From IMG/VR virus record IMGVR_UViG_3300034691_000069: a stretch of DNA of 64,000 nt; one strand, 5' to 3'. Positions 4,404-58,964 of this stretch are shown here, piece by piece. Below the pieces are notes generated by a model. That model did not search any database. It saw only the letters and a program-made list of their open reading frames with translations, and was not told the origin of the DNA. The DNA comes from a virus (Duplodnaviria > Heunggongvirae > Uroviricota > Caudoviricetes). The position numbers and the translations under genes were made by a program. Numbering within the stretch: position 1 is the stretch's first letter; the number at the start of each line of letters is the position of its first letter.

Positions 4404-4757
4404 TTAAATGTGCTTTAAATAAATTCGATACAAGTCAACAAACTTAATAGTAAAGTTGTACTCTGGATAGTGAGTGTCATAGTAGTCTTGAACTTCATCT
4501 ATACAAGCCTGACCTTTGTTATAAATTTCTTCAGCAATTTCCAAAAACTTCGCCAACGAACTATCAGGAAACAAAACCAGCGTGATTTCATAATGTGGCG
4601 GTTTCGCAACAGCTTCATCAGCAATGGAAGAACTGGTAACTTTCATGTAAAAATATTTCTTATCCTTGCTCATTCGGTAGTTAAACTGCTTCACAAAGGC
4701 AATAAAATCTGGTGATTTTTCATCGACTTCGATTTCTTTTACTTTTTTCTTAGTCAT
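4404..4757 (-). CDS. hypothetical protein
   Basis: ORF track. Confidence 0.5.
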   Translation of the reverse strand: MTKKKVKEIEVDEKSPDFIAFVKQFNYRMSKDKKYFYMKVTSSSIADEAVAKPPHYEITLVLFPDSSLAKFLEIAEEIYNKGQACIDEVQDYYDTHYPEYNFTIKFVDLYRIYLKHI

Positions 4758-8365: not shown

Positions 8366-8442
8366 TGGTGGGACTTACAGGACTTGAACCTGTGACCTGC
8401 CGATTATGAGTCGGTTGCTCTAACCAACTGAGCTAAAGTCCC
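8366..8442 (-). tRNA. tRNA-Met (or lysidine-Ile) anticodon CAU, CCA encoded
   Basis: minus-strand read GGGACUUUAGCUCAGUUGGUUAGAGC...CUCAUAA...GGUUCAAGUCC...AAGUCCCACCA folds as canonical cloverleaf (7-bp acceptor, D-arm, CAU anticodon loop, T-loop UUCAAGU). Confidence 0.8.
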
Positions 8443-8708: not shown

Positions 8709-8792
8709 TGGTGCCCGAGGCCGGACTCGAACCGGCACTCCGTAAGGAAGGGGATTTTAAGTCCCCCGCGTCTACCATTCCACCACTCGGGC
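8709..8792 (-). tRNA. tRNA-Leu anticodon UAA (long variable arm), CCA encoded
   Basis: minus-strand read GCCCGAGUGGUGGAAUGGUAGAC...CUUAAAA...long variable arm...GGUUCGAGUCCGGCCUCGGGCACCA; class II tRNA. Confidence 0.8.
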
Positions 8793-17819: not shown

Positions 17820-18422
17820 TTATTGTGCTGGCACCAAACCTTTTGCAATTGCCAGTGAAACCCCGATGATAGCACTGCAAGTGCGAATTTCGCCACTTTC
17901 AATCATCTTCATGGTGTCTTCACGACTGATTTTGATGATTTGAATGTCTTCATCATCAATACCATGCGAACGGTTCAGGTCGAAGCTCGAAGAGTCAACG
18001 TAGGCAAAGTAGGTATGGTGCATTTCGTTCGAGATACCAGCACTGGTGTATCCTTTGCACAGGTAACGAATATCTTCCAACTTAATCAGCATATTGGTTT
18101 CTTCTTCACCTTCACGCTGAGCGGCCAACAGTGGGTCTTCTTTCGGGTCGATATGTCCGGCAACAGGCTCGATAACCCAAGCGTCAGTTTCGTCAGGATG
18201 TTTGAAGGCACCCATGCGGAATTGCTTCACGAAAACGAATTCATCAGTCGCTTTGTCATACAAGGTCAGGCAGATAGCTGAGGGTTTAGTGAGCACATAA
18301 TGATCGATTTCTTTGGTGCCACCAAAAATACTCTCATAGGAGCCTTGCACCTGTTCCACTTGCATAAAGGAACGGTGAACATGAGAAATGATTTTTTTAA
18401 TATTGAATACTGGGATGGTCAT
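17820..18422 (-). CDS. Nudix hydrolase (ADP-ribose/NudE-like pyrophosphatase)
   Basis: Nudix box GHIDPKEDPLLAAQREGEEETN (GX5EX7REUXEEXGU). Confidence 0.75.
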   Translation of the reverse strand: MTIPVFNIKKIISHVHRSFMQVEQVQGSYESIFGGTKEIDHYVLTKPSAICLTLYDKATDEFVFVKQFRMGAFKHPDETDAWVIEPVAGHIDPKEDPLLAAQREGEEETNMLIKLEDIRYLCKGYTSAGISNEMHHTYFAYVDSSSFDLNRSHGIDDEDIQIIKISREDTMKMIESGEIRTCSAIIGVSLAIAKGLVPAQ

Positions 18423-19649: not shown

Positions 19650-20144
19650 TTAAGCTGCTGTGGCAACCATTTCGTGTTTTTGCTTCCGTTCTTCTCTTTT
19701 CCTTGCAATAACAACAGGATCTCGACGTTCACGTTTTTTTTGCTTTTTAGCCTCCATTCTTGCCTCAAAATCGAGCATTTGGACGGCCAGTTCATCCAGC
19801 GTGATAACCTGATGACCCTTCGTAGTATTACAGTGGCAGCACATAGGCTGAAGGTTTTCAAGTTCATTGCTACCGCCATTTTTCTTGGCAGTAATATGGT
19901 CAATGGTCATCAAAACCATATCGTCAGTAAACAAGTCCCAATGTCCACCACCTTGGCTATCACGGGAAAAAATCAACCGATTACCCACATTTTGGCAATT
20001 GGGAGTTACACAAGATAAACCTTTATGAAAAAAGACACGAAGGCGACGGTGCTTTTCGAAAGCATGAATACCATCAACACCACGTTCACGCACAAAGAAA
20101 TAACCACAGCCGGGAATTTTTTCGTCTTTTTTGAATGATTTCAT
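19650..20144 (-). CDS. HNH endonuclease (free-standing, homing-endonuclease-like)
   Basis: HNH motif DHITAKKNGGSNELENLQPMCCHCN; basic C-terminal tail. Confidence 0.7.
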   Translation of the reverse strand: MKSFKKDEKIPGCGYFFVRERGVDGIHAFEKHRRLRVFFHKGLSCVTPNCQNVGNRLIFSRDSQGGGHWDLFTDDMVLMTIDHITAKKNGGSNELENLQPMCCHCNTTKGHQVITLDELAVQMLDFEARMEAKKQKKRERRDPVVIARKREERKQKHEMVATAA

Positions 20145-29613: not shown

Positions 29614-30291
29614 TTATTTGGGATTGACAACCGAATCCCACATGGCCGATATATCGAGAACTGCTCGATTAGACACAGGTGGTGAAAGCTGTTCACGAAC
29701 ATTATGAAACTTTTCATACATGCTGGCCCAATAACCCATCCGCCAGTTTTCAGCTTTCAACGGGTCGTTTTTTTCACCGTTAAGACTTTTCGAAATAAAT
29801 TTTTCATTCTTCAATGCCAAGATAACAGCCTCAACCACTTCCAGAGCCGCTTTTTTCCAACTGGCTTCAACATTGTCAGGGATATTGAAAATGAGTGGAT
29901 TACTGGCATTGGCAGTCAATACTTCTGCTTTCAATCCGGGTTGATGAGACAGGTTCTTTTTGGCATAGATATCAATGTTCTTTTCCATGAAGGCATATTG
30001 CATAATTTCAAGTTCACGCTCTACCAATCTAGCCTCATAGTAATCAGGCATCATTTCCTGAATTTCTTTGTCAATGGCAAGCGGTTTAACCAAATGATCC
30101 GGCATCGACATGACTGCTTTTCGAGGATTGGTGTCTTTTACTTTGTGAATATGAACACAACCATCTTCGCCCCACTGTGCGAAAGGCTCACGCAAAAGAA
30201 TATGAGACAATACGGACAAACGACTTTTTGACGTAAGCGGGCTAGTCAACATGATACGTTTAACAATGATTTCAGCGTGAGTCAATTTCAT
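29614..30291 (-). CDS. paralog family B member 2 (225 aa)
   Basis: tandem duplicate of 28861..29511. Confidence 0.55.
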   Translation of the reverse strand: MKLTHAEIIVKRIMLTSPLTSKSRLSVLSHILLREPFAQWGEDGCVHIHKVKDTNPRKAVMSMPDHLVKPLAIDKEIQEMMPDYYEARLVERELEIMQYAFMEKNIDIYAKKNLSHQPGLKAEVLTANASNPLIFNIPDNVEASWKKAALEVVEAVILALKNEKFISKSLNGEKNDPLKAENWRMGYWASMYEKFHNVREQLSPPVSNRAVLDISAMWDSVVNPK

Positions 30292-30387
30292 TTGCGTAGC
30301 CTCATGGATTTATCTATACGCCATTATACAGATTTATCAAGAATTAGACAACAAAAAACAGCTCGAAAGCGGCTTTTTTTTAATATG

Positions 30388-30702
30388 TTATGCTTTGTGA
30401 GGTCGGATATTACAGTCACCAGAAACAATGAGTTTTTCTTGAGTATCCTGCTCGTAAACATCAATTCTTAGAGTTTGATAGTCAATGCCACGATACAATA
30501 TAATATTTTCATGCTTATAAGTGACAATGCCACCTGAGCTACAAATAATATCTTGCGGGCCGTTATCTCGATAAGTATCAATTTCTTTTTGATATTTAAT
30601 CATATTAGCAGTGCTTGATTGTTCAGCTTTTGATGCTTTCAACTCATCCAAACAACCAGTGAGCAAGAAAGGTATAATCAAAAAACACAGTAATTTTTTC
30701 AT
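30388..30702 (-). CDS. small lipoprotein (lipobox LLTGC)
   Basis: signal peptide + Cys lipobox. Confidence 0.55.
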   Translation of the reverse strand: MKKLLCFLIIPFLLTGCLDELKASKAEQSSTANMIKYQKEIDTYRDNGPQDIICSSGGIVTYKHENIILYRGIDYQTLRIDVYEQDTQEKLIVSGDCNIRPHKA

Positions 30703-30715
30703 GATGACTCCAATA

Positions 30716-31003
30716 TTATTTAAGTTTATGAATAGGTGCTGGCGGTCTTGCGGTTTTCGGTGTAATCAAATCAAATTGAACACGCCCTTTAACAAACCCA
30801 AACACGTCAAGGTCATACTGAGATACACGCGGGTCATCAACAGTCAAATGTTCCAAATGATCAACAAAATCATTGAACTCTTTTACGGTTTGAAAAGCCA
30901 CTTCTGCTGTTTTTGGACCACCCATGTAGTAATGGCCGTGGCTGGATTTGCAGAAAGCATGGGCGTAACCATGACGGTTAACAATGCTTGCAGTAAAGGG
31001 CAT
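30716..31003 (-). CDS. hypothetical protein (95 aa)
   Basis: ORF track. Confidence 0.5.
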   Translation of the reverse strand: MPFTASIVNRHGYAHAFCKSSHGHYYMGGPKTAEVAFQTVKEFNDFVDHLEHLTVDDPRVSQYDLDVFGFVKGRVQFDLITPKTARPPAPIHKLK

Positions 31004-31124
31004 GTAAGTCTCCTGAATAGTTTCAATAGGTGAAGTATAGCAAAAAATACAATATTCGTAAAGCTATTTTTGACTGTAAACAAAAAAGCCCTAGAAAACT
31101 AGGGCCGTTTTATTAAACCGTCAC

Positions 31125-32246
31125 TTACTCGGGGATAGGCACTTGTTTACGAGCAAACACCATGATAGCGGCTTGTTTGTAATCAATTTCATCACCCGAA
31201 AACTTGCTCATCAACACCGACAGAAGCAATGGAGCCACTTCTTTGGCTTTACGAGCGTAATCGCCACGTTCCAAACCTTTATGCTCATCGTAGAAGCTGT
31301 CAACCGTGCGAACAAGGTAATGGTAGCTTTTACGGGCGTAGTCTTCGACTTCATCCAAGCGAGCCAGAATTTCAGCCAGTGGGAAATTATCGCTGTGTGT
31401 CCGGTAGTGATACAACGAACGGATTTCATCCAGAATTTCATGAAGGGTTGCTTCATAAATAACCTGACGTTCCTTCGAACGATCCTGAATGTTGACCACT
31501 GCCGACATTTTCAGGTAAGGAATGGTCTTGACCTTATACATGTCAGGGCCGATTTCAATCACATAACCTTCGATATCGGGGTCATTCACGTTGATTTCAT
31601 TAACGGGAATACGCTTCACCAGATGGGCAGCAATGACCGGATATTCTGCGGCAAATTCTGCCGAACGAATGTCCACATAAGCCCCTGTGTTCATGTCGCG
31701 GGCTTTCAACACATGAACTTCGTAGGTAGTGTATTCGATGAAAACACGGTTTTTCGGCGTGGTCAGTTCCAAGTCAACCGAAACACCTGTGCGGGTCAGC
31801 CGTTCAACGTCTGCGTGCAATTCTGGACTGATAGACTGTTCAACAAGGCCGTAATCAGCAAACGTAGGCTTCTTTTTACTCTTGTAGTAAAGAGTATCAT
31901 TGATCGGAGAAATATAGCTGGTGAGCAACGAGCCATCGGGTTTCAGATAAGCATGGTCGGCTTCTTCTGGCTTCACCTTTTGCGTTTCAGGGGTTTCGCC
32001 CAAGGAAAAGAATTTCTGCATTGGCAATGCCACCAGCATTGGCTCAGAACCGCCCATATAGAACATGACACCACGGCAATCCTTAGCACCCGGAAGTTTG
32101 AATTCGGAATGCTTTGGAATGTCATAGTTGAAGACACGGTAAGTCCCGCCGTCTACCGCCGAGATTTCATCACGGTATTTGAAAGACCCCGGATTAGTCA
32201 CCAGCAGGTGCATCAGTTGGGCATACAGTTCTTGTTGATAAGTCAT
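31125..32246 (-). CDS. rnlA: RNA ligase 1 (T4 gp63/Rnl1 homolog); start taken at second Met (GGAG RBS)
   Basis: similarity to T4 Rnl1 including YR(V/I)F.Y...LP...CRG(V/I)MF, nucleotidyltransferase motif I KPDGSL and motif IV EGYVI; antisense 373-aa track ORF is a shadow. Confidence 0.8.
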   Translation of the reverse strand: MTYQQELYAQLMHLLVTNPGSFKYRDEISAVDGGTYRVFNYDIPKHSEFKLPGAKDCRGVMFYMGGSEPMLVALPMQKFFSLGETPETQKVKPEEADHAYLKPDGSLLTSYISPINDTLYYKSKKKPTFADYGLVEQSISPELHADVERLTRTGVSVDLELTTPKNRVFIEYTTYEVHVLKARDMNTGAYVDIRSAEFAAEYPVIAAHLVKRIPVNEINVNDPDIEGYVIEIGPDMYKVKTIPYLKMSAVVNIQDRSKERQVIYEATLHEILDEIRSLYHYRTHSDNFPLAEILARLDEVEDYARKSYHYLVRTVDSFYDEHKGLERGDYARKAKEVAPLLLSVLMSKFSGDEIDYKQAAIMVFARKQVPIPE

Positions 32247-32302
32247 GTGAATCTCCATGATTAAATTGTCTGAATCTATTATATCAAAAACTGATTTTTA
32301 AT

Positions 32303-32623
32303 TCAAACTTTTCTTCGTGCTTGCATAATTTTATTGAGCATGTCGCCTTGAACATCACAAAAACCTTTCGGCCAAGCAGACAGTTCAAATTTGCTATCCA
32401 TTGTGATATCGGCATCATCAAAGACAAATACAACATCGTCAACACTGATTTTCTTTTCAGCAGCAGCCAAGCGGAATGCTGTGATGACACTGGCCGTCGA
32501 AGTCGTGTAGCTCACATCGCCAAGATGACGCAAAGAAATCAGTTCATCCACCAGACCGAGACACAATCCATCTGGGGTTGCAACACCATTCGTTGGGTCA
32601 TAGGTAATTCGAAATTTAGTCAT
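32303..32623 (-). CDS. hypothetical protein, paralog of 12105..12416 (start moved to MTKFRITYDP..., AGAGG RBS; first ATG of track ORF overlaps the promoter -10)
   Basis: ORF track with start correction; paralogy. Confidence 0.55.
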   Translation of the reverse strand: MTKFRITYDPTNGVATPDGLCLGLVDELISLRHLGDVSYTTSTASVITAFRLAAAEKKISVDDVVFVFDDADITMDSKFELSAWPKGFCDVQGDMLNKIMQARRKV

Positions 32624-32714
32624 AGAAACCTCTGTGGTAATCAGTGGATTATACATGAAATATTGTTTTTAAACAATGAAAAAGACAGTCAAAGACTGCC
32701 TTTTATTTTGATCT

Positions 32715-33098
32715 TTACGCTTTTGCGTCCATCGCTTCTTTCTGTTCAAGATAGAAGACATAAAGGCGAGTGTATTCAATGGTGGCAGAAAAACGCGAAT
32801 AGTTCCGTGGCGGCTCTGAATACGCTTCGGGTTCTTCGGTTATCCACCAAGAGTTGAAAAATCTACGCAGTTTTTGAGCCAGTTCCATCATAACCACCGC
32901 CGAAACGTCTGGAAACATCATGGCAACCAGTTGAAAGTTGGGTGGGCAAGCAATAGTTTCCTCGATACCAGAAGAACCATCTTCAACCAAAGACCAACAA
33001 ACAACAGACGTGTCACCTTTACGGAACCGTGCTATGAAATTCAAAAAATCTGTGTTTGTAATATCTACATCGGCTGCTTTTTCACGAATAGTTTTCAT
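32715..33098 (-). CDS. hypothetical protein
   Basis: ORF track. Confidence 0.5.
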   Translation of the reverse strand: MKTIREKAADVDITNTDFLNFIARFRKGDTSVVCWSLVEDGSSGIEETIACPPNFQLVAMMFPDVSAVVMMELAQKLRRFFNSWWITEEPEAYSEPPRNYSRFSATIEYTRLYVFYLEQKEAMDAKA

Positions 33099-33216
33099 CG
33101 AATAAACCTCTGTTTTGAATAAATTGATTATACATCAAAAACTAAAAATTAACAACCAAAAAATAGATTTTTATAAAAAAGCCCTGCAAATGCAGGGCTT
33201 CTTTCTTCATGCTGAG

Positions 33217-34338
33217 TTAAACGGGAGCGGACAAGTCGCCAAGCTCAATTTGTTCCAACGACCAATCAACCAGATGGTTTTTAGAGTAGTGATACAGGTA
33301 GTCGTTTTTGTGACCACGAATTGCCCCCATAACAAAACCAAAGTGTTTGTGGCCTTTGAGTTGGATTGCTGCAGTTTTCACGTCAACACCTTGGAATGCA
33401 GCAGCAATATCATCAACCTCTTTCGACAACGCTTCAATCGAAGCTTTGATAGCGTCATTGATACGATAAATTTCACTCAAATCAGCCGTTGGCGAGTTTA
33501 GCGACAAATAAGCAATGTAATCATCAAGTTTTTCTTCGACCACCAAACGAGCAATATCACGTTCACGAACAAAGCTAACCGCATGATGGAGATTCATATA
33601 CCATTTGGTTTTGATTTTGATCATGTTACCGTTAACGAATTGAATAACATAGCCTTCAATCCCTTCAACCGTGTTCAGCGACTTCAAAAGGGAAGCCAAA
33701 TCAAATTCTTCACCAAACAGTGGCTTGTTAACAGGAATATCAAACAACAACGCCAGTTGGTCTTTTTCAGCAGGCATTAAGTAATCGCCTGTGATGTTGT
33801 GACGAACATGAAGCAATGTCATGTTGTCTTCGTCATAACGCAAAACGATACGATGCTTTGGCGAAGTGAATTCAAAAATTGGCGTCAGTTGGGCCTGAGA
33901 GCAATATTTGGTGAACTCGTAGTATTTCTGGTTACGAGAGACAAAGCCTTCTGCCGAAACAGCCACATCCGATTTGAAAGACTTCTTGGACTTAGCAAAG
34001 AATTCGCCTTTGAACAGACCTGTGGTAATCATGGAGCCATCCATTTTATCAAACCCGGCAACCATAGTGTTCCAATCCAAAACGGCTGGCTGGACTTCTG
34101 CACGCTCTGCCAAGTTGAAGAATTTGTGCAATGGACGCGACAGTATTTTACCGTTGTCGTCAAAGGTAATACCGCGAGCTTCCTTTTCAACCGGAGTGTT
34201 GAAAGAGTCACCGTTGCTGATGTTGTAGCAAACGATGTCGGCACCGTTATCCTGTTTGTTAACAGAAATATAGGCACGGTCTTTGATATGAGGAATCATA
34301 TCATCAAGGGTTTCAATACGGGGGAAGATGCTGGACAT
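33217..34338 (-). CDS. second Rnl1-family RNA ligase (paralog of rnlA, diverged)
   Basis: EARGITFDDNGKILSRPLHKFFNL (cf. T4 Rnl1 ECRGIMFEMDG...RPMEKFFNL), motif I KMDGSM, motif IV GIEGYVIQF...IKIKTKWY. Confidence 0.7.
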   Translation of the reverse strand: MSSIFPRIETLDDMIPHIKDRAYISVNKQDNGADIVCYNISNGDSFNTPVEKEARGITFDDNGKILSRPLHKFFNLAERAEVQPAVLDWNTMVAGFDKMDGSMITTGLFKGEFFAKSKKSFKSDVAVSAEGFVSRNQKYYEFTKYCSQAQLTPIFEFTSPKHRIVLRYDEDNMTLLHVRHNITGDYLMPAEKDQLALLFDIPVNKPLFGEEFDLASLLKSLNTVEGIEGYVIQFVNGNMIKIKTKWYMNLHHAVSFVRERDIARLVVEEKLDDYIAYLSLNSPTADLSEIYRINDAIKASIEALSKEVDDIAAAFQGVDVKTAAIQLKGHKHFGFVMGAIRGHKNDYLYHYSKNHLVDWSLEQIELGDLSAPV

Positions 34339-34465
34339 GATTCAAATCTCTACTGGTTTGAGTTGGACTATTATATCGAAATACAGCAGTGAAGGCAAGT
34401 CAAAAATGATATTTTTAAAATAAAAAGCAGCCCCGAAGGACTGCTAATTAATAACCTTGTTGAGA

Positions 34466-34807
34466 TTATGCCGTAATCGTCAAACCTGAGTATTCAACTT
34501 CGCGGCAATCAACACTGACCGAAAGGCGGGAACCATCGAAAAGGGTTGGCAGTTTGCTTTCGTCTACTGCACTGTGCAAATAGAGTTCAGCCACACAAAT
34601 TTTACGTTCTTTGTCAAAGCTCAGCACCTGAAACTCATAAACATTCTTATGATAGATTTCAGCATCCAAGTGAAAAAAGTCGTAGGTGTCGTCACGAAGA
34701 ACAGTATCCAATTTGAAAGTGATGGTTACGGTAGTGATGGACATGATGGTAAACCCCTTTGGTTTTAATGGAGCCATTATAACAACGAGTGAAAACAAAA
34801 ACAACAT
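34466..34807 (-). CDS. hypothetical protein
   Basis: ORF track. Confidence 0.5.
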   Translation of the reverse strand: MLFLFSLVVIMAPLKPKGFTIMSITTVTITFKLDTVLRDDTYDFFHLDAEIYHKNVYEFQVLSFDKERKICVAELYLHSAVDESKLPTLFDGSRLSVSVDCREVEYSGLTITA

Positions 34808-34871
34808 TTATCTTAGTTTAAGTCAAAAAAAAGCAGACCCGAAAGCCTGCTTTTCTGACCATCGCTACGGC

Positions 34872-35126
34872 TTAAATCTGGCGGCGAAGGTTCTTCACTT
34901 CTTTATCACGGCTACCCAAAGTCAATTGATTGTCGATAGCATCCAGCAAAACAGCTTTGGCAACAACTTTACCAAGGGCAATATGTGTCGAGGTGTCTTC
35001 GGTGATGTTCAGGGCACCACATTCAACAGCTTTCAGCAATTTAGCCCGAGCGTCGGCCAGAACACGGTCGATCATGTCAGTAGCTTCTTCAATCACGCTT
35101 TCTTTTGGAGTTTGAACGGTAGTCAT
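34872..35126 (-). CDS. hypothetical protein (84 aa)
   Basis: ORF track. Confidence 0.45.
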   Translation of the reverse strand: MTTVQTPKESVIEEATDMIDRVLADARAKLLKAVECGALNITEDTSTHIALGKVVAKAVLLDAIDNQLTLGSRDKEVKNLRRQI

Positions 35127-35203
35127 GGCGAATCCTCTTCGTAAATGTAGGCTGATTATACAATAAAATGTGATTTATAGCAAACACAATTAGGATGATT
35201 TTT

Positions 35204-35231
35204 TTGACTTTATAATAAATAAAAGTATTAT
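35204..35231 (+). promoter_or_regulatory. plus-strand promoter TTGACT-16-TATTAT
   Basis: upstream of 35265 moron gene. Confidence 0.45.
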
Positions 35232-35264
35232 GATATAAGAGAATAAATACAAAAAATACTAAAA

Positions 35265-35684
35265 ATGAAAAAAATAATCATAAGTCTGTCAATTTTGATG
35301 ATTACATCAATATCACTTGCAAGTTATGAAGTGGTAATAAAGCCAGAATCACATCTTAATAAAGGTGATATAGTTTTTATTAATGACACACAAGTTCCAC
35401 CAATTCCACCAATTGTAACGGAACCAACCAAGCCAGATGGTTATGAATGTGATACATATAGTGAGTCAAAAACATGGACAAAAGTATTTAGAAATCATAT
35501 AACTTATGGAAACTCAATTCGATATTTAAGATGGCAAAACAGAATCTATGTAGATTCAGGATATACAAAAAAATTAAAATTCCCACTTACAGCCGAAGGA
35601 TATGTTTATATAACTGGTGAATTAGCTAGAACTGATAGTGCATATGATTACTATCAAGTCTGCAGGTATCCAACTATTAAATAA
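35265..35684 (+). CDS. small secreted protein (signal peptide; AT-rich moron)
   Basis: ORF track; own promoter; terminator aaaaaaggccaactagtggccttttt right after stop. Confidence 0.55.
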   Translation: MKKIIISLSILMITSISLASYEVVIKPESHLNKGDIVFINDTQVPPIPPIVTEPTKPDGYECDTYSESKTWTKVFRNHITYGNSIRYLRWQNRIYVDSGYTKKLKFPLTAEGYVYITGELARTDSAYDYYQVCRYPTIK

Positions 35685-35696
35685 TAATTAAAACAA

Positions 35697-35725
35697 CAAA
35701 AAAGGCCAACTAGTGGCCTTTTTCT
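35697..35725. terminator. bidirectional terminator (ggccaCTAGtggcc hairpin flanked by A-run and T-run)
   Basis: palindromic stem between convergent genes. Confidence 0.55.
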
Positions 35726-35735
35726 TTGTGTTGCT

Positions 35736-36590
35736 TTACTGCTTTGGTTGAACGATGGGCTGTGGAACTGTTACCCCTTGTGGAAGGGAGCCACCACCAC
35801 CCAAGACAATCAACATGTTGACGTTATCTTTCTTTTTGACCGTTTCAACAATCTCACGCTGGTTGTCAATTTCACGACCTCGCAAGTATTGCTCAGGTGT
35901 CATTTTCATTTTGCTCATGTATTCATTGTCAGCAGCAGCTTTGTTGGTTTCAGCTTCTTTTCGCTGAGTTTCAGCAGACGCTCGTTCAATTTCAGTTAAT
36001 GCACGTTGAATTTGAGCTTCTGTCCGAGCAGTTTCTGCAAGAACTTCATCTGGCGGCATAATTGCACCGATAGTTACAGCCAAAATTCGAACCGGAATGC
36101 CTTTTGCTACAACAATGTCAACCATTTTCTTGTAAACATCGTCTTCACCTGAGTCAGTCACTGTCTGTTCTGTAGTGAGTTGCTTCACAGTGTGTTTTCG
36201 AGCAAAGTCACGAAGCATGTTTTGAAAGTCTTTTTTCAAGTTGTTATCATACATTGCATTACCAAAGCTTTCATGGTAGATGTAAGCTTTTTCAGGAATG
36301 ATTTCATAACGAACCACCGCTTTAAAGTCTACAGGAGTCGAGTTAATGGTTGCCAAGTCATTAAACGCCTCTTCTTTCTGAATAGGTTTAATGTCATAGC
36401 GGTGCATGATGGAAGTTGGCGAGATATAATAGCGATCACCACCTTTATAAACTTCTTTCTCTACACCACCAGTGCCGAAGTAGGGGTGTTTTTCAACCAC
36501 ACCGACAAAACCCGCATCTAAGGTTTCAGAACACCCACTGAGGGCAACTGAGGCCAGAAGAACAAGAGAAGCAAAAATCTTTTTAAGCAT
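35736..36590 (-). CDS. SPFH/band-7 (prohibitin/HflKC-like) lipoprotein
   Basis: lipobox LSGC; central SPFH-like region followed by Ala/Glu-rich coiled-coil (ETARTEAQIQRALTEIERASAETQRKEAE). Confidence 0.55.
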   Translation of the reverse strand: MLKKIFASLVLLASVALSGCSETLDAGFVGVVEKHPYFGTGGVEKEVYKGGDRYYISPTSIMHRYDIKPIQKEEAFNDLATINSTPVDFKAVVRYEIIPEKAYIYHESFGNAMYDNNLKKDFQNMLRDFARKHTVKQLTTEQTVTDSGEDDVYKKMVDIVVAKGIPVRILAVTIGAIMPPDEVLAETARTEAQIQRALTEIERASAETQRKEAETNKAAADNEYMSKMKMTPEQYLRGREIDNQREIVETVKKKDNVNMLIVLGGGGSLPQGVTVPQPIVQPKQ

Positions 36591-57063: not shown

Positions 57064-57133
57064 GCTGTATGATGGGATTCGAACCCACGACTACCGTTTT
57101 TCGACGGAGTTCTGCCGACTGAACTACAAACAG
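57064..57133 (-). tRNA. tRNA-like element with canonical acceptor/D/T arms but aberrant anticodon arm (3-4 bp stem, 6-8 nt loop UCGAAAAA); no encoded CCA
   Basis: minus-strand read CUGUUUG-UA-GUUC-AGUCGGCA-GAAC-...-GUGGG-UUCGAAU-CCCAU-CAUACAG; T-loop GGUUCGAAUCC perfect. Confidence 0.45.
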
Positions 57134-58376: not shown

Positions 58377-58964
58377 TTACTTAACAAAAAAGAACTCTTC
58401 ATAGATTTTGTATTCGGCAATAGACTCTTTAATATCTTCAAGTCCACGGTGTTTTTCTTGCTTCTTAACCATCATGCCTACTTCTGGTTTTACACGCCAA
58501 ACGATTTCTTTGAGAGTGCTTACATCAATGATGCGGTAATGCAAGATGCTGGCAAAGGTTGGCATTTGGGCCATGATAAAGTTGCGATCCAGCGAAACAC
58601 TGTTACCACAAATAGGGCTAGAACCGGGGGCAATATTGAACTGAGCGATATACGCCAAGATCATTTTCTCGGCTTCGGCCAATGAAACAGGAGAGGCATC
58701 CACACGCTCCCATAACCCACTGGTGATGTGCATGTTACGGACGTAATCATTAGCCAGTGCTTTGGCTTCTTCAACGTCATGATGAATAACCACTTCAAAG
58801 CCTTCATCAATGATATTGAATTTCGAATCGGTAATATGAATACCGACTTCAAGGATTTTGTGATACTGAGCACCCGACAACTTGTCAGCAATATCTAAGC
58901 CAGTCGTTTCAAGATCCACCCAAATAAGTAGGTCTTTGCGAAGTTCAATAGCCGTCATAGTCAT
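58377..58964 (-). CDS. orn: oligoribonuclease (DEDDh 3'-5' exonuclease, Orn family)
   Basis: LIWVDLETTGLD exo motif I, full-length collinear similarity to bacterial Orn (…SPICGNS…DR.F…HYR..DVSTLKE…). Confidence 0.8.
   Translation of the reverse strand: MTMTAIELRKDLLIWVDLETTGLDIADKLSGAQYHKILEVGIHITDSKFNIIDEGFEVVIHHDVEEAKALANDYVRNMHITSGLWERVDASPVSLAEAEKMILAYIAQFNIAPGSSPICGNSVSLDRNFIMAQMPTFASILHYRIIDVSTLKEIVWRVKPEVGMMVKKQEKHRGLEDIKESIAEYKIYEEFFFVK

Follow-up and report, generated by a model that had tools for sequence, protein, structure and literature searches.

A 64-kb stretch of DNA from a virus of the Caudoviricetes (IMG/VR record IMGVR_UViG_3300034691_000069; this whole stretch is referred to below as the window) encodes two RNA ligases of the Rnl1 family close to each other, which are designated here Rnl1-A and Rnl1-B, or simply A and B. 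Related loci retrieved from other contigs were numbered L001 onwards. The presence of two full-length Rnl1-family ligases is real and far beyond what chance would produce, and the window derives from an uncultured phage of very large size, either T4-like or jumbo. The explanation that we favor, and which the sequences make fairly probable, is that this phage possesses two competent Rnl1 ligases, B being the resident copy and A being carried on a cassette, which are likely to be non-redundant.

The two open reading frames (ORFs) had been assigned to Rnl1-family ligases in a preliminary description of the window, and this assignment was borne out by Pfam, by matches to sequences in the PDB and by motifs. 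The Pfam family RNA_lig_T4_1 (PF09511) matched A with 31.3 bits (E 2e-7) and B with 96.2 bits (E 3e-27), and PHROG 562 matched both proteins over their full length (152 bits for A and 245 bits for B); of the two proteins, it is B that fits the family profiles better. The Pfam family T4_Rnl1_C fell below the cutoff for A (19.7 versus 27 bits) and gave no match for B. When PDB sequences were searched, the significant matches of both proteins were T4 Rnl1 entries only, with A aligned to T4 residues 2-348 (E 9e-33) and B to T4 residues 34-277 (E 2e-27). The same description had A as the more similar of the two to T4 gp63, with which the phylogeny (see below) and the end-to-end alignment agree, and had placed the start of A at position 32246. 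This ATG is probably the correct start, because a GGAG lies 6 nucleotides (nt) upstream of it and the close homologs all measure 373 amino acids (aa). Membership of A or B in the Rnl2 family was rejected, as no match to PF09414 was found and T4 Rnl2 structures ranked far below Rnl1 in Foldseek searches (E 1e-4 to 1e-6 versus 1e-22 to 1e-25). No match was obtained by megablast of positions 30000-36000 of the window against deposited phages; close cultured relatives of this phage are lacking. Protein B had no exact match among the records of the assembly collection.

Table 1. Genes and sequence features in the window, and the Rnl2-type ligase genes of two related contigs
Feature	Position	Strand	Description
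Rnl1-A	31125-32246	(-)	373 aa; Rnl1-family RNA ligase; longest ORF 31125-32258, 377 aa
Rnl1-B	33217-34338	(-)	373 aa; Rnl1-family RNA ligase; resident copy
sm1	32303-32656	(-)	117 aa (105 aa in relatives); phrog_12026 (unknown function), E 8e-14
sm2	32715-33098	(-)	127 aa; no Pfam or PHROG match; accompanies A in all contigs with both ligases
Sigma-70-like promoter match upstream of B	34370-34398	(-)	TTGCCT-17-TATAAT, 10/12
Promoter-like site upstream of sm2	33127-33155	(-)	TTGTTA-17-TATAAT, 10/12
Promoter-like site upstream of A	32278-32306	(-)	TTGAAT-17-TATAAT, 10/12; extended -10 (TG)
Intrinsic-terminator-like hairpin after B	33173-33200	(-)	17 nt after the B stop; AAGCCCTGC-ATTT-GCAGGGCTT then TTTTAT
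Terminator-like hairpin after sm2	32680-32704	(-)	11-bp stem, then T-run
Terminator-like hairpin after A	31087-31106	(-)	GGCCCTAG-TTTT-CTAGGGCT then TTTTTGTTT
NUDIX hydrolase	17820-18422	(-)	Recognizable accessory gene
HNH endonuclease	19650-20144	(-)	Recognizable accessory gene
Band_7/SPFH protein	35736-36590	(-)	1.4 kb upstream of B; only such gene adjacent to the ligases
RNase_T-type exonuclease	58377-58964	(-)	Recognizable accessory gene
Rnl2-type ligase in relatives	L002:2385-3461; L094:3054-4139		PF09414 plus PHA02142; stands in place of A-type Rnl1

Active sites, fold and selection

The active sites were analyzed in an alignment of T4 Rnl1 (NC_000866) with 40 A-family and 46 B-family sequences. 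The adenylyltransferase motifs I (KxDG) and IV (EGYV), which had been read from both proteins, were seen in this alignment as YLK106PDGS in A (numbered on the 377-aa ORF) and FDK98MDGS in B for motif I, and as IEGYV in both for motif IV. Residues Y37, R54, K75, F76/F77, K99, D101, G102, S103, E159, and R182 of T4 Rnl1 are matched in A and B, as are E227, G228, K240, K242, Y246, and D272, and within each of the two families little or no variation occurs at these positions. Nucleotidyltransferase motifs III, IV, and V are represented by E164, E230-G231, and K242/K244 in A and by E156, E228-G229, and K241/K243 in B, all of them invariant in the respective family. The Rnl1-type N-terminal region described for both proteins keeps equivalents of three residues that contact ATP: R62, K82, and F83 of A and R55, K72, and F73 of B, which lie in the N-terminal sub-domain, are invariant in both families. 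Further residues conserved in B are Y38, F74, and D272. Among the T4 positions checked, the motif-I lysine is marked by the title of PDB entry 5TT6, which is that of a T4 Rnl1 K99M mutant, and those other than the ATP contacts are the residues that we take to be catalytic from the mutational literature. R54, K75, and F76 of T4 Rnl1 are contacts to ATP, and the first two of them are essential (PMC6379707).

The motif-I lysine is kept in 40 of 40 A-family and in 45 of 46 B-family sequences, and the second protein of the window (B) is among those that retain it. In P0070, a B-family member labelled as coming from a Silvanigrellaceae metagenome-assembled genome (MAG), isoleucine replaces this catalytic lysine. 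In comparisons between contigs that carry both ligases, A had a ratio of nonsynonymous to synonymous divergence (dN/dS) of 0.04-0.06 and B one of 0.04-0.08, and synonymous divergence (dS) reached 1.4-1.6. Such low ratios at this degree of divergence indicate, as far as sequences can tell, that A and B are both functional and have long been maintained together. The possibility that one of them is a pseudogene or an inactive copy was rejected on the basis of these ratios and of the retained catalytic residues.

AlphaFold2 models had a mean predicted local distance difference test (pLDDT) score of 94.0 for A and 89.6 for B, and both display an all-helical domain that extends from about residue 255 to the C terminus, the domain that sets the Rnl1 clade apart from Rnl2-Rnl6. 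The best Foldseek matches were 5tt6 for A (E 1.9e-25, 378 columns) and 2c5u for B (E 3.5e-22, 370 columns), that is, T4 Rnl1 in both cases, followed by the fungal Trl1-LIG and then by Rnl3, Rnl5, and Rnl2. Global TM-scores against T4 Rnl1 reached just 0.57-0.59 with a large root-mean-square deviation, which in these models probably reflects the orientation of the domains.

The conservation of the active sites also bears on a different division of labor, in which one copy would act mainly in the virion or in tail-fiber attachment, like T4 gp63, while the other would repair RNA. Such a role is in line with the annotation of T4 gp63 with both activities, with the label "tail" of PHROG 562 (matched by A and B), and with the detection by proteomics of an Rnl1-like protein in virions of megaphage G (PMC12484599). 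However, neither ligase gene is found near structural genes in the 64-kb window, and the full conservation of the adenylyltransferase site in both families argues for selection on ligase chemistry in each of them. We therefore regard a mainly structural role for either copy as improbable, and we know of no sequence feature that reports tail-fiber attachment activity. The repurposing of one copy raised in the preliminary description, taken here to mean a non-catalytic tail-fiber factor, finds no support: the catalytic residues are all invariant in both families and dN/dS is 0.04-0.08.

Origin of the two ligases and their distribution in relatives

The locus had been described as harboring an Rnl1 duplication in which B is the diverged paralog. 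Tandem duplication within the phage lineage, after which the second copy diverged, would agree with the arrangement of the two genes, which lie on the same strand, 1 kb apart, belong to the same family and encode proteins of equal length. Sequence comparison speaks strongly against it. A and B share just 25% identity (E 4e-14), and for each of them T4 Rnl1 is a closer match than the neighboring ligase (bit scores of 127 for A and 109 for B against T4 Rnl1, and 59-65 for A against B). A neighbor-joining tree built from 172 Rnl1 sequences placed the A family as sister to the branch containing T4, Xoo-sp13, and L026, and nested the B family in a separate large clade that includes the Ralstonia phage RsoM2USA. 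Bootstrapping (100 replicates on 39 taxa, rooted with a distant Pnk-linked Rnl1) gave a group of A and T4 to the exclusion of B in 100/100 replicates and A and B as sisters in 0/100, and each family was monophyletic in 100/100. In addition, A and B both have orthologs in phages that lack the partner ligase, and the collinear contig L001 lacks the A cassette. A duplication is thus very hard to sustain, and neither "duplicated" nor "paralog" is an appropriate term for this pair. Rather, the phylogeny indicates that A and B are two ancient subfamilies that were brought together, and their history is one of gene gain or cassette exchange. The two subfamilies differ in size, with 786 database hits for B and 43 for A.

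The pair was detected only in seven closely related metagenome contigs (L010-L014, L183, and L184), in all of which the order B-sm2-sm1-A is collinear with the window; it is not, then, common to all relatives. Among 50,697 deposited phage records, none had two Rnl1 places; every matching record had exactly one (1684 places in 1684 records with one query, and 1567 in 1567 with the other). Orthologs of B at 62-98% identity were found in L001-L007, L010-L014, L183, and L184, and the genes that accompany them vary. L001, a 290-kb IMG/VR contig whose B is 74% identical, is collinear with the window on both flanks and lacks the segment of about 2.1 kb containing sm2, sm1, and A, the slot being occupied by a 122-aa GNAT-like ORF. 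In L002 and L094-L096, the B ligase (68-69% identical) is joined by an Rnl2-type ligase located 6-7 kb upstream of it, and in L003-L007 B is the only ligase within 10 kb. A-type ligases also occur alone: within 10 kb in L015, a 498-kb contig that has many accessory genes in common with the window in a different order, and in L019 and the AT-rich contigs L177-L182. Because of this synteny and of the mixed combinations of ligases among relatives, B is the resident ligase of the lineage and its partner varies from lineage to lineage, the combination of A and B being limited to a narrow clade. These patterns also provide evidence of an exchange of the second ligase within a clade of very large phages.

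The surroundings of A-type ligases in other contigs include tyrosyl-tRNA synthetase, glutamyl- or glutaminyl-tRNA synthetase, NUDIX, and a HAD_SAK_2 phosphatase. The tyrosyl-tRNA synthetase gene adjoins the ligase in L177-L181, as seen in L177 and L179 (L179:11445-12701), both of them AT-rich with 24-28% GC. In L177 (L177:9553-21215) a NUDIX gene lies directly upstream of the A-type ligase, accompanied by a class-Ic aminoacyl-tRNA synthetase and, about 8 kb away, by the HAD_SAK_2 phosphatase, which looks like a translation and RNA-repair neighborhood. One locus (L019), and none on B-carrying contigs, was retrieved when IMG/VR was scanned with patterns from the A-family alignment, and a search of IMG/VR for A with single-protein patterns retrieved nothing. 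Among GTDB genomes the best match was a contig of a Chloroflexota MAG, just 41% identical and uninformative on the host.

Two further observations concern the contigs themselves. A B-like ligase in the IMG/VR contig L009 (L009:8806-10122) appeared as two overlapping tblastn segments, which suggests that this gene is frameshifted or interrupted. L183, L184, L015, and L096 are very long (1.86 Mb for Ga0308158_10000001, 678 kb for Ga0308157_10000028, 498 kb, and 1.54 Mb, respectively), and two of the four exceed 735 kb; they may be real genomes, concatenated assemblies or cellular contigs. The largest phage genome described measures 735 kb (PMC7162821).

Transcription and neighboring genes

Each of the two ligase genes is preceded by a promoter-like site and followed by a terminator-like hairpin (Table 1), from which we infer that A and B may be separately transcribed. 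The stem of the hairpin after B had been put on the opposite strand by the scan; the hairpin in Table 1 was read directly on the minus strand.

Between the ligases lie two small genes that had been described as members of a paralog family. They are not paralogs of each other, and within the window a distant paralog exists for sm2 only (4404-4757; 25%, E 6e-10). Homologs of sm2 that are 71-94% identical occupy the same position between B and A in L010, L011, L014, L183, and L184. The sm1 proteins of L010, L011, and L184 are 37-39% identical to that of the window while the adjoining A genes are 89-90% identical, so sm1 is evolving fast; in L015 its homolog is situated 8 kb from A. A role of sm2 as a 2H phosphoesterase was ruled out by the lack of any histidine in the protein, and end healing by either gene product is unsupported, as neither has a Pfam match and sm1 matches phrog_12026 only.

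About 100 small ORFs, mostly on the minus strand and almost all without a Pfam match, make up the window. Several of them form paralog families, designated by position as 10188/51488/52252/60261, 21602/22373/45720, 28861/29614, 28202/41455, 36967/37649, and 4404/32715. Among the 103 ORFs other than the ligases, the Pfam families found were DUF2807, pentapeptide repeats, RNase_T, Band_7, HNH, NUDIX, GNAT, and DUF2201 only. The gene at 57064-57133 (minus strand) is tRNA-like, with an Rfam tRNA score of 44 bits and a two-base "anticodon" assigned by ARAGORN. It folds with a 4-bp anticodon stem and a 6-nt loop (CGAAAA), and may be a degenerate or decoy tRNA.

Possible roles of the two ligases in RNA repair

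T4 Rnl1 (gp63, RnlA; PDB 2C5U, 5TT6, and 9DO4) is the top match of both A and B in sequence and in structure. It has the same domain plan, in which a nucleotidyltransferase core stands between an Rnl1-type N-terminal sub-domain and an all-helical C-terminal domain, as well as the same catalytic residues and almost the same length (374 aa versus 373 aa), at an overall identity of 27-30%. B differs from T4 Rnl1 and from A by the absence of the N-terminal helix. Substrate choice by Rnl1 enzymes is understood just in outline, and the C-terminal domain is required in T4. It is in this domain that A, B, and T4 Rnl1 have diverged most, being 17-21% identical there as opposed to 23-34% in the N-terminal domains, although the C-terminal domains are still homologous (hhalign E 1.6e-5). 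In B, the C-terminal domain evolves faster than the N-terminal one (67% versus 86% identity to L010), and it ends in a family-specific conserved tail (Y347, Y351, L356, W359, L361, and G367). The C-terminal domain of T4 Rnl1 confers specificity for tRNA; the enzyme requires ends healed by Pnkp, and its physiological role is to repair breaks in the anticodon loop once Pnkp has healed them (PMC6379707, PMC1920235).

It is plausible that A and B are non-redundant and would seal different broken RNAs, because their C-terminal domains have diverged, both genes have been retained together under purifying selection, and sister lineages carry a different second ligase. Specialization against different anticodon nucleases, as raised in the preliminary description, is a reasonable possibility. 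The two might instead be redundant xenologs, A being a second Rnl1 gained by horizontal transfer with the function that B already has, whether to increase dosage or as a transitional state ahead of the loss of one copy. This possibility fits the relatives in which one ligase stands alone, B in L001 and L003-L007 and A (within 10 kb) in L015, L019, and L177-L182, which would then indicate that either enzyme is sufficient. It also fits the variable cassette site downstream of B and the identity of the catalytic residues in A and B. However, one of two redundant copies would be expected to decay, whereas this pair persists at near-saturated dS (1.4-1.6) with dN/dS of 0.04-0.08, and sister lineages that pair B with an Rnl2-type enzyme suggest selection for a different second ligase. 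For these reasons simple redundancy seems unlikely to us. A more specific proposal is that the C-terminal domains give A and B non-overlapping RNA targets, so that each would answer a different host anticodon nuclease or one would act on non-tRNA RNA or on unusual ends, and that healing takes place without a T4-type Pnkp through an unrecognized enzyme encoded among the many uncharacterized genes of this phage clade; this we put forward tentatively, and in its full form it is rather doubtful.

Several observations weigh against two non-redundant ligases in a working repair pathway. The divergence of the C-terminal domains could be neutral drift between old lineages and not a change of specificity. 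The K119-equivalent position is variable (K, M or Q) in 14 of the 40 sequences of the A family, although A itself has K. The promoter and terminator consensus matches do not exceed expectation (14 versus 11.2 +/- 3.5 in shuffled sequence). The tRNA genes of the window (8369-8442, 8712-8792, and 57064-57133) are 22-25 kb from the ligases and not adjacent to them, which leaves the proximity to tRNA genes stressed in the preliminary description a weak argument. In L001-L007, L010-L016, L019-L021, L183, and L184, the 10 kb around the ligases contained no Pnk, and no member of the kinase, HAD, 2H, metallophosphatase, and HD families was detected by Pfam in the other 103 ORFs of the window. The repair pathway, as seen here, is incomplete, with no end-healing enzyme in the 64 kb or in the 10-kb surroundings of the ligases at about 20 related loci.

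The earlier statement that no Pnk is visible is correct for the 64-kb window, according both to Pfam and to tblastn with T4 PseT (NC_000866), which detected no T4-type Pnk. Likewise, the HAD_SAK_2 protein of L177 and the Rnl2-type ligase of L094 have no homolog in the window, and the RlaP nucleotidyltransferase that is usual beside such ligases was not seen there. An alignment of 10 Pnk sequences searched against IMG/VR gave no locus on A- or B-carrying contigs among the best 80 of 134 confirmed loci. Pnk does adjoin the ligase in about 15 more distant Rnl1 loci. Since the contigs of relatives range from 290 kb to over 1 Mb, the phage genome is likely larger than 290 kb, several times the size of the window, and absence of Pnk from the whole genome is unproven. 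In jumbo phages healing enzymes generally co-occur with ATP-dependent ligases, and they may belong to the HAD_SAK, 2H, cRec, calcineurin-like or HD families instead of being T4-type Pnkp (PMC7824862).

On balance we continue to favor two competent and probably non-redundant ligases. The sequences and models show the family membership, the intact active sites, the fold, the phylogeny, the distribution, and the selection; from these we infer that both have ligase activity, that tRNA may be among their substrates, and that they could be specialized. A would have arrived, or have been retained only in a narrow clade, as a cassette of about 2.1 kb (sm2-sm1-A) inserted at a variable site just downstream of B. 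As in T4 Rnl1, the motif-I lysine of each enzyme would be adenylylated, the AMP would then be passed to the 5'-phosphate end of the RNA, and attack by the 3'-OH would seal the break. Strong purifying selection has kept the pair, presumably in separate transcription units, and A and B would seal different RNAs, for instance different tRNAs or the products of damage by different host ribonucleases. End healing (5' kinase activity and removal of the 2',3'-phosphate) would be provided by a gene outside the window or by an unrecognized protein.

Among known systems, the single Rnl1 of T4 is encoded 1.4 kb from pseT (Pnkp), whereas the 64 kb of the window contain two Rnl1 genes but no Pnkp. Phages with several RNA ligases are known among jumbo phages, such as BcepSauron and BcepSaruman, which carry RtcB, Rnl1, and Rnl2, and XacN1, which carries three Rnl2 paralogs (Iyer et al. 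2021, PMC7824862). These ligases were inferred to be non-redundant, each directed at damage by a different RNase effector, so substrate specialization by multiple ligases has already been proposed for jumbo phages in general (PMC7824862). Like those phages, the source of the window has a large genome with more than one RNA ligase; unlike in those phages, the two ligases are both Rnl1, of two subfamilies, and adjacent. The closest cultured relatives of B are Rnl1 homologs from Ralstonia phage RsoM2USA and from Stenotrophomonas, Xanthomonas, and Caulobacter phages, which belong to the same broad branch and, unlike the window, have a single Rnl1 each. Among them, gp480 of RsoM2USA, annotated as a hypothetical protein, is 41.7% identical over 97% of B. 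The multi-ligase theme is therefore known, and what is new is the presence of two Rnl1 subfamilies side by side, a pair that no deposited phage genome shows.

Conceptually, this finding adds to the published view of RNA repair in jumbo phages without altering it. Given their diverged C-terminal domains, which share about 18% identity, A and B offer a ready comparison for mapping the determinants of Rnl1 specificity, and if their targets are indeed non-overlapping, the pair would lend itself naturally to mapping how Rnl1 C-terminal domains read their substrates. It also allows one to ask whether phages match single ligases to single host tRNA nucleases. Finally, the swapping of the second ligase beside B, which may be A-type, Rnl2-type or missing, is the pattern expected from an arms race with varied host RNases.

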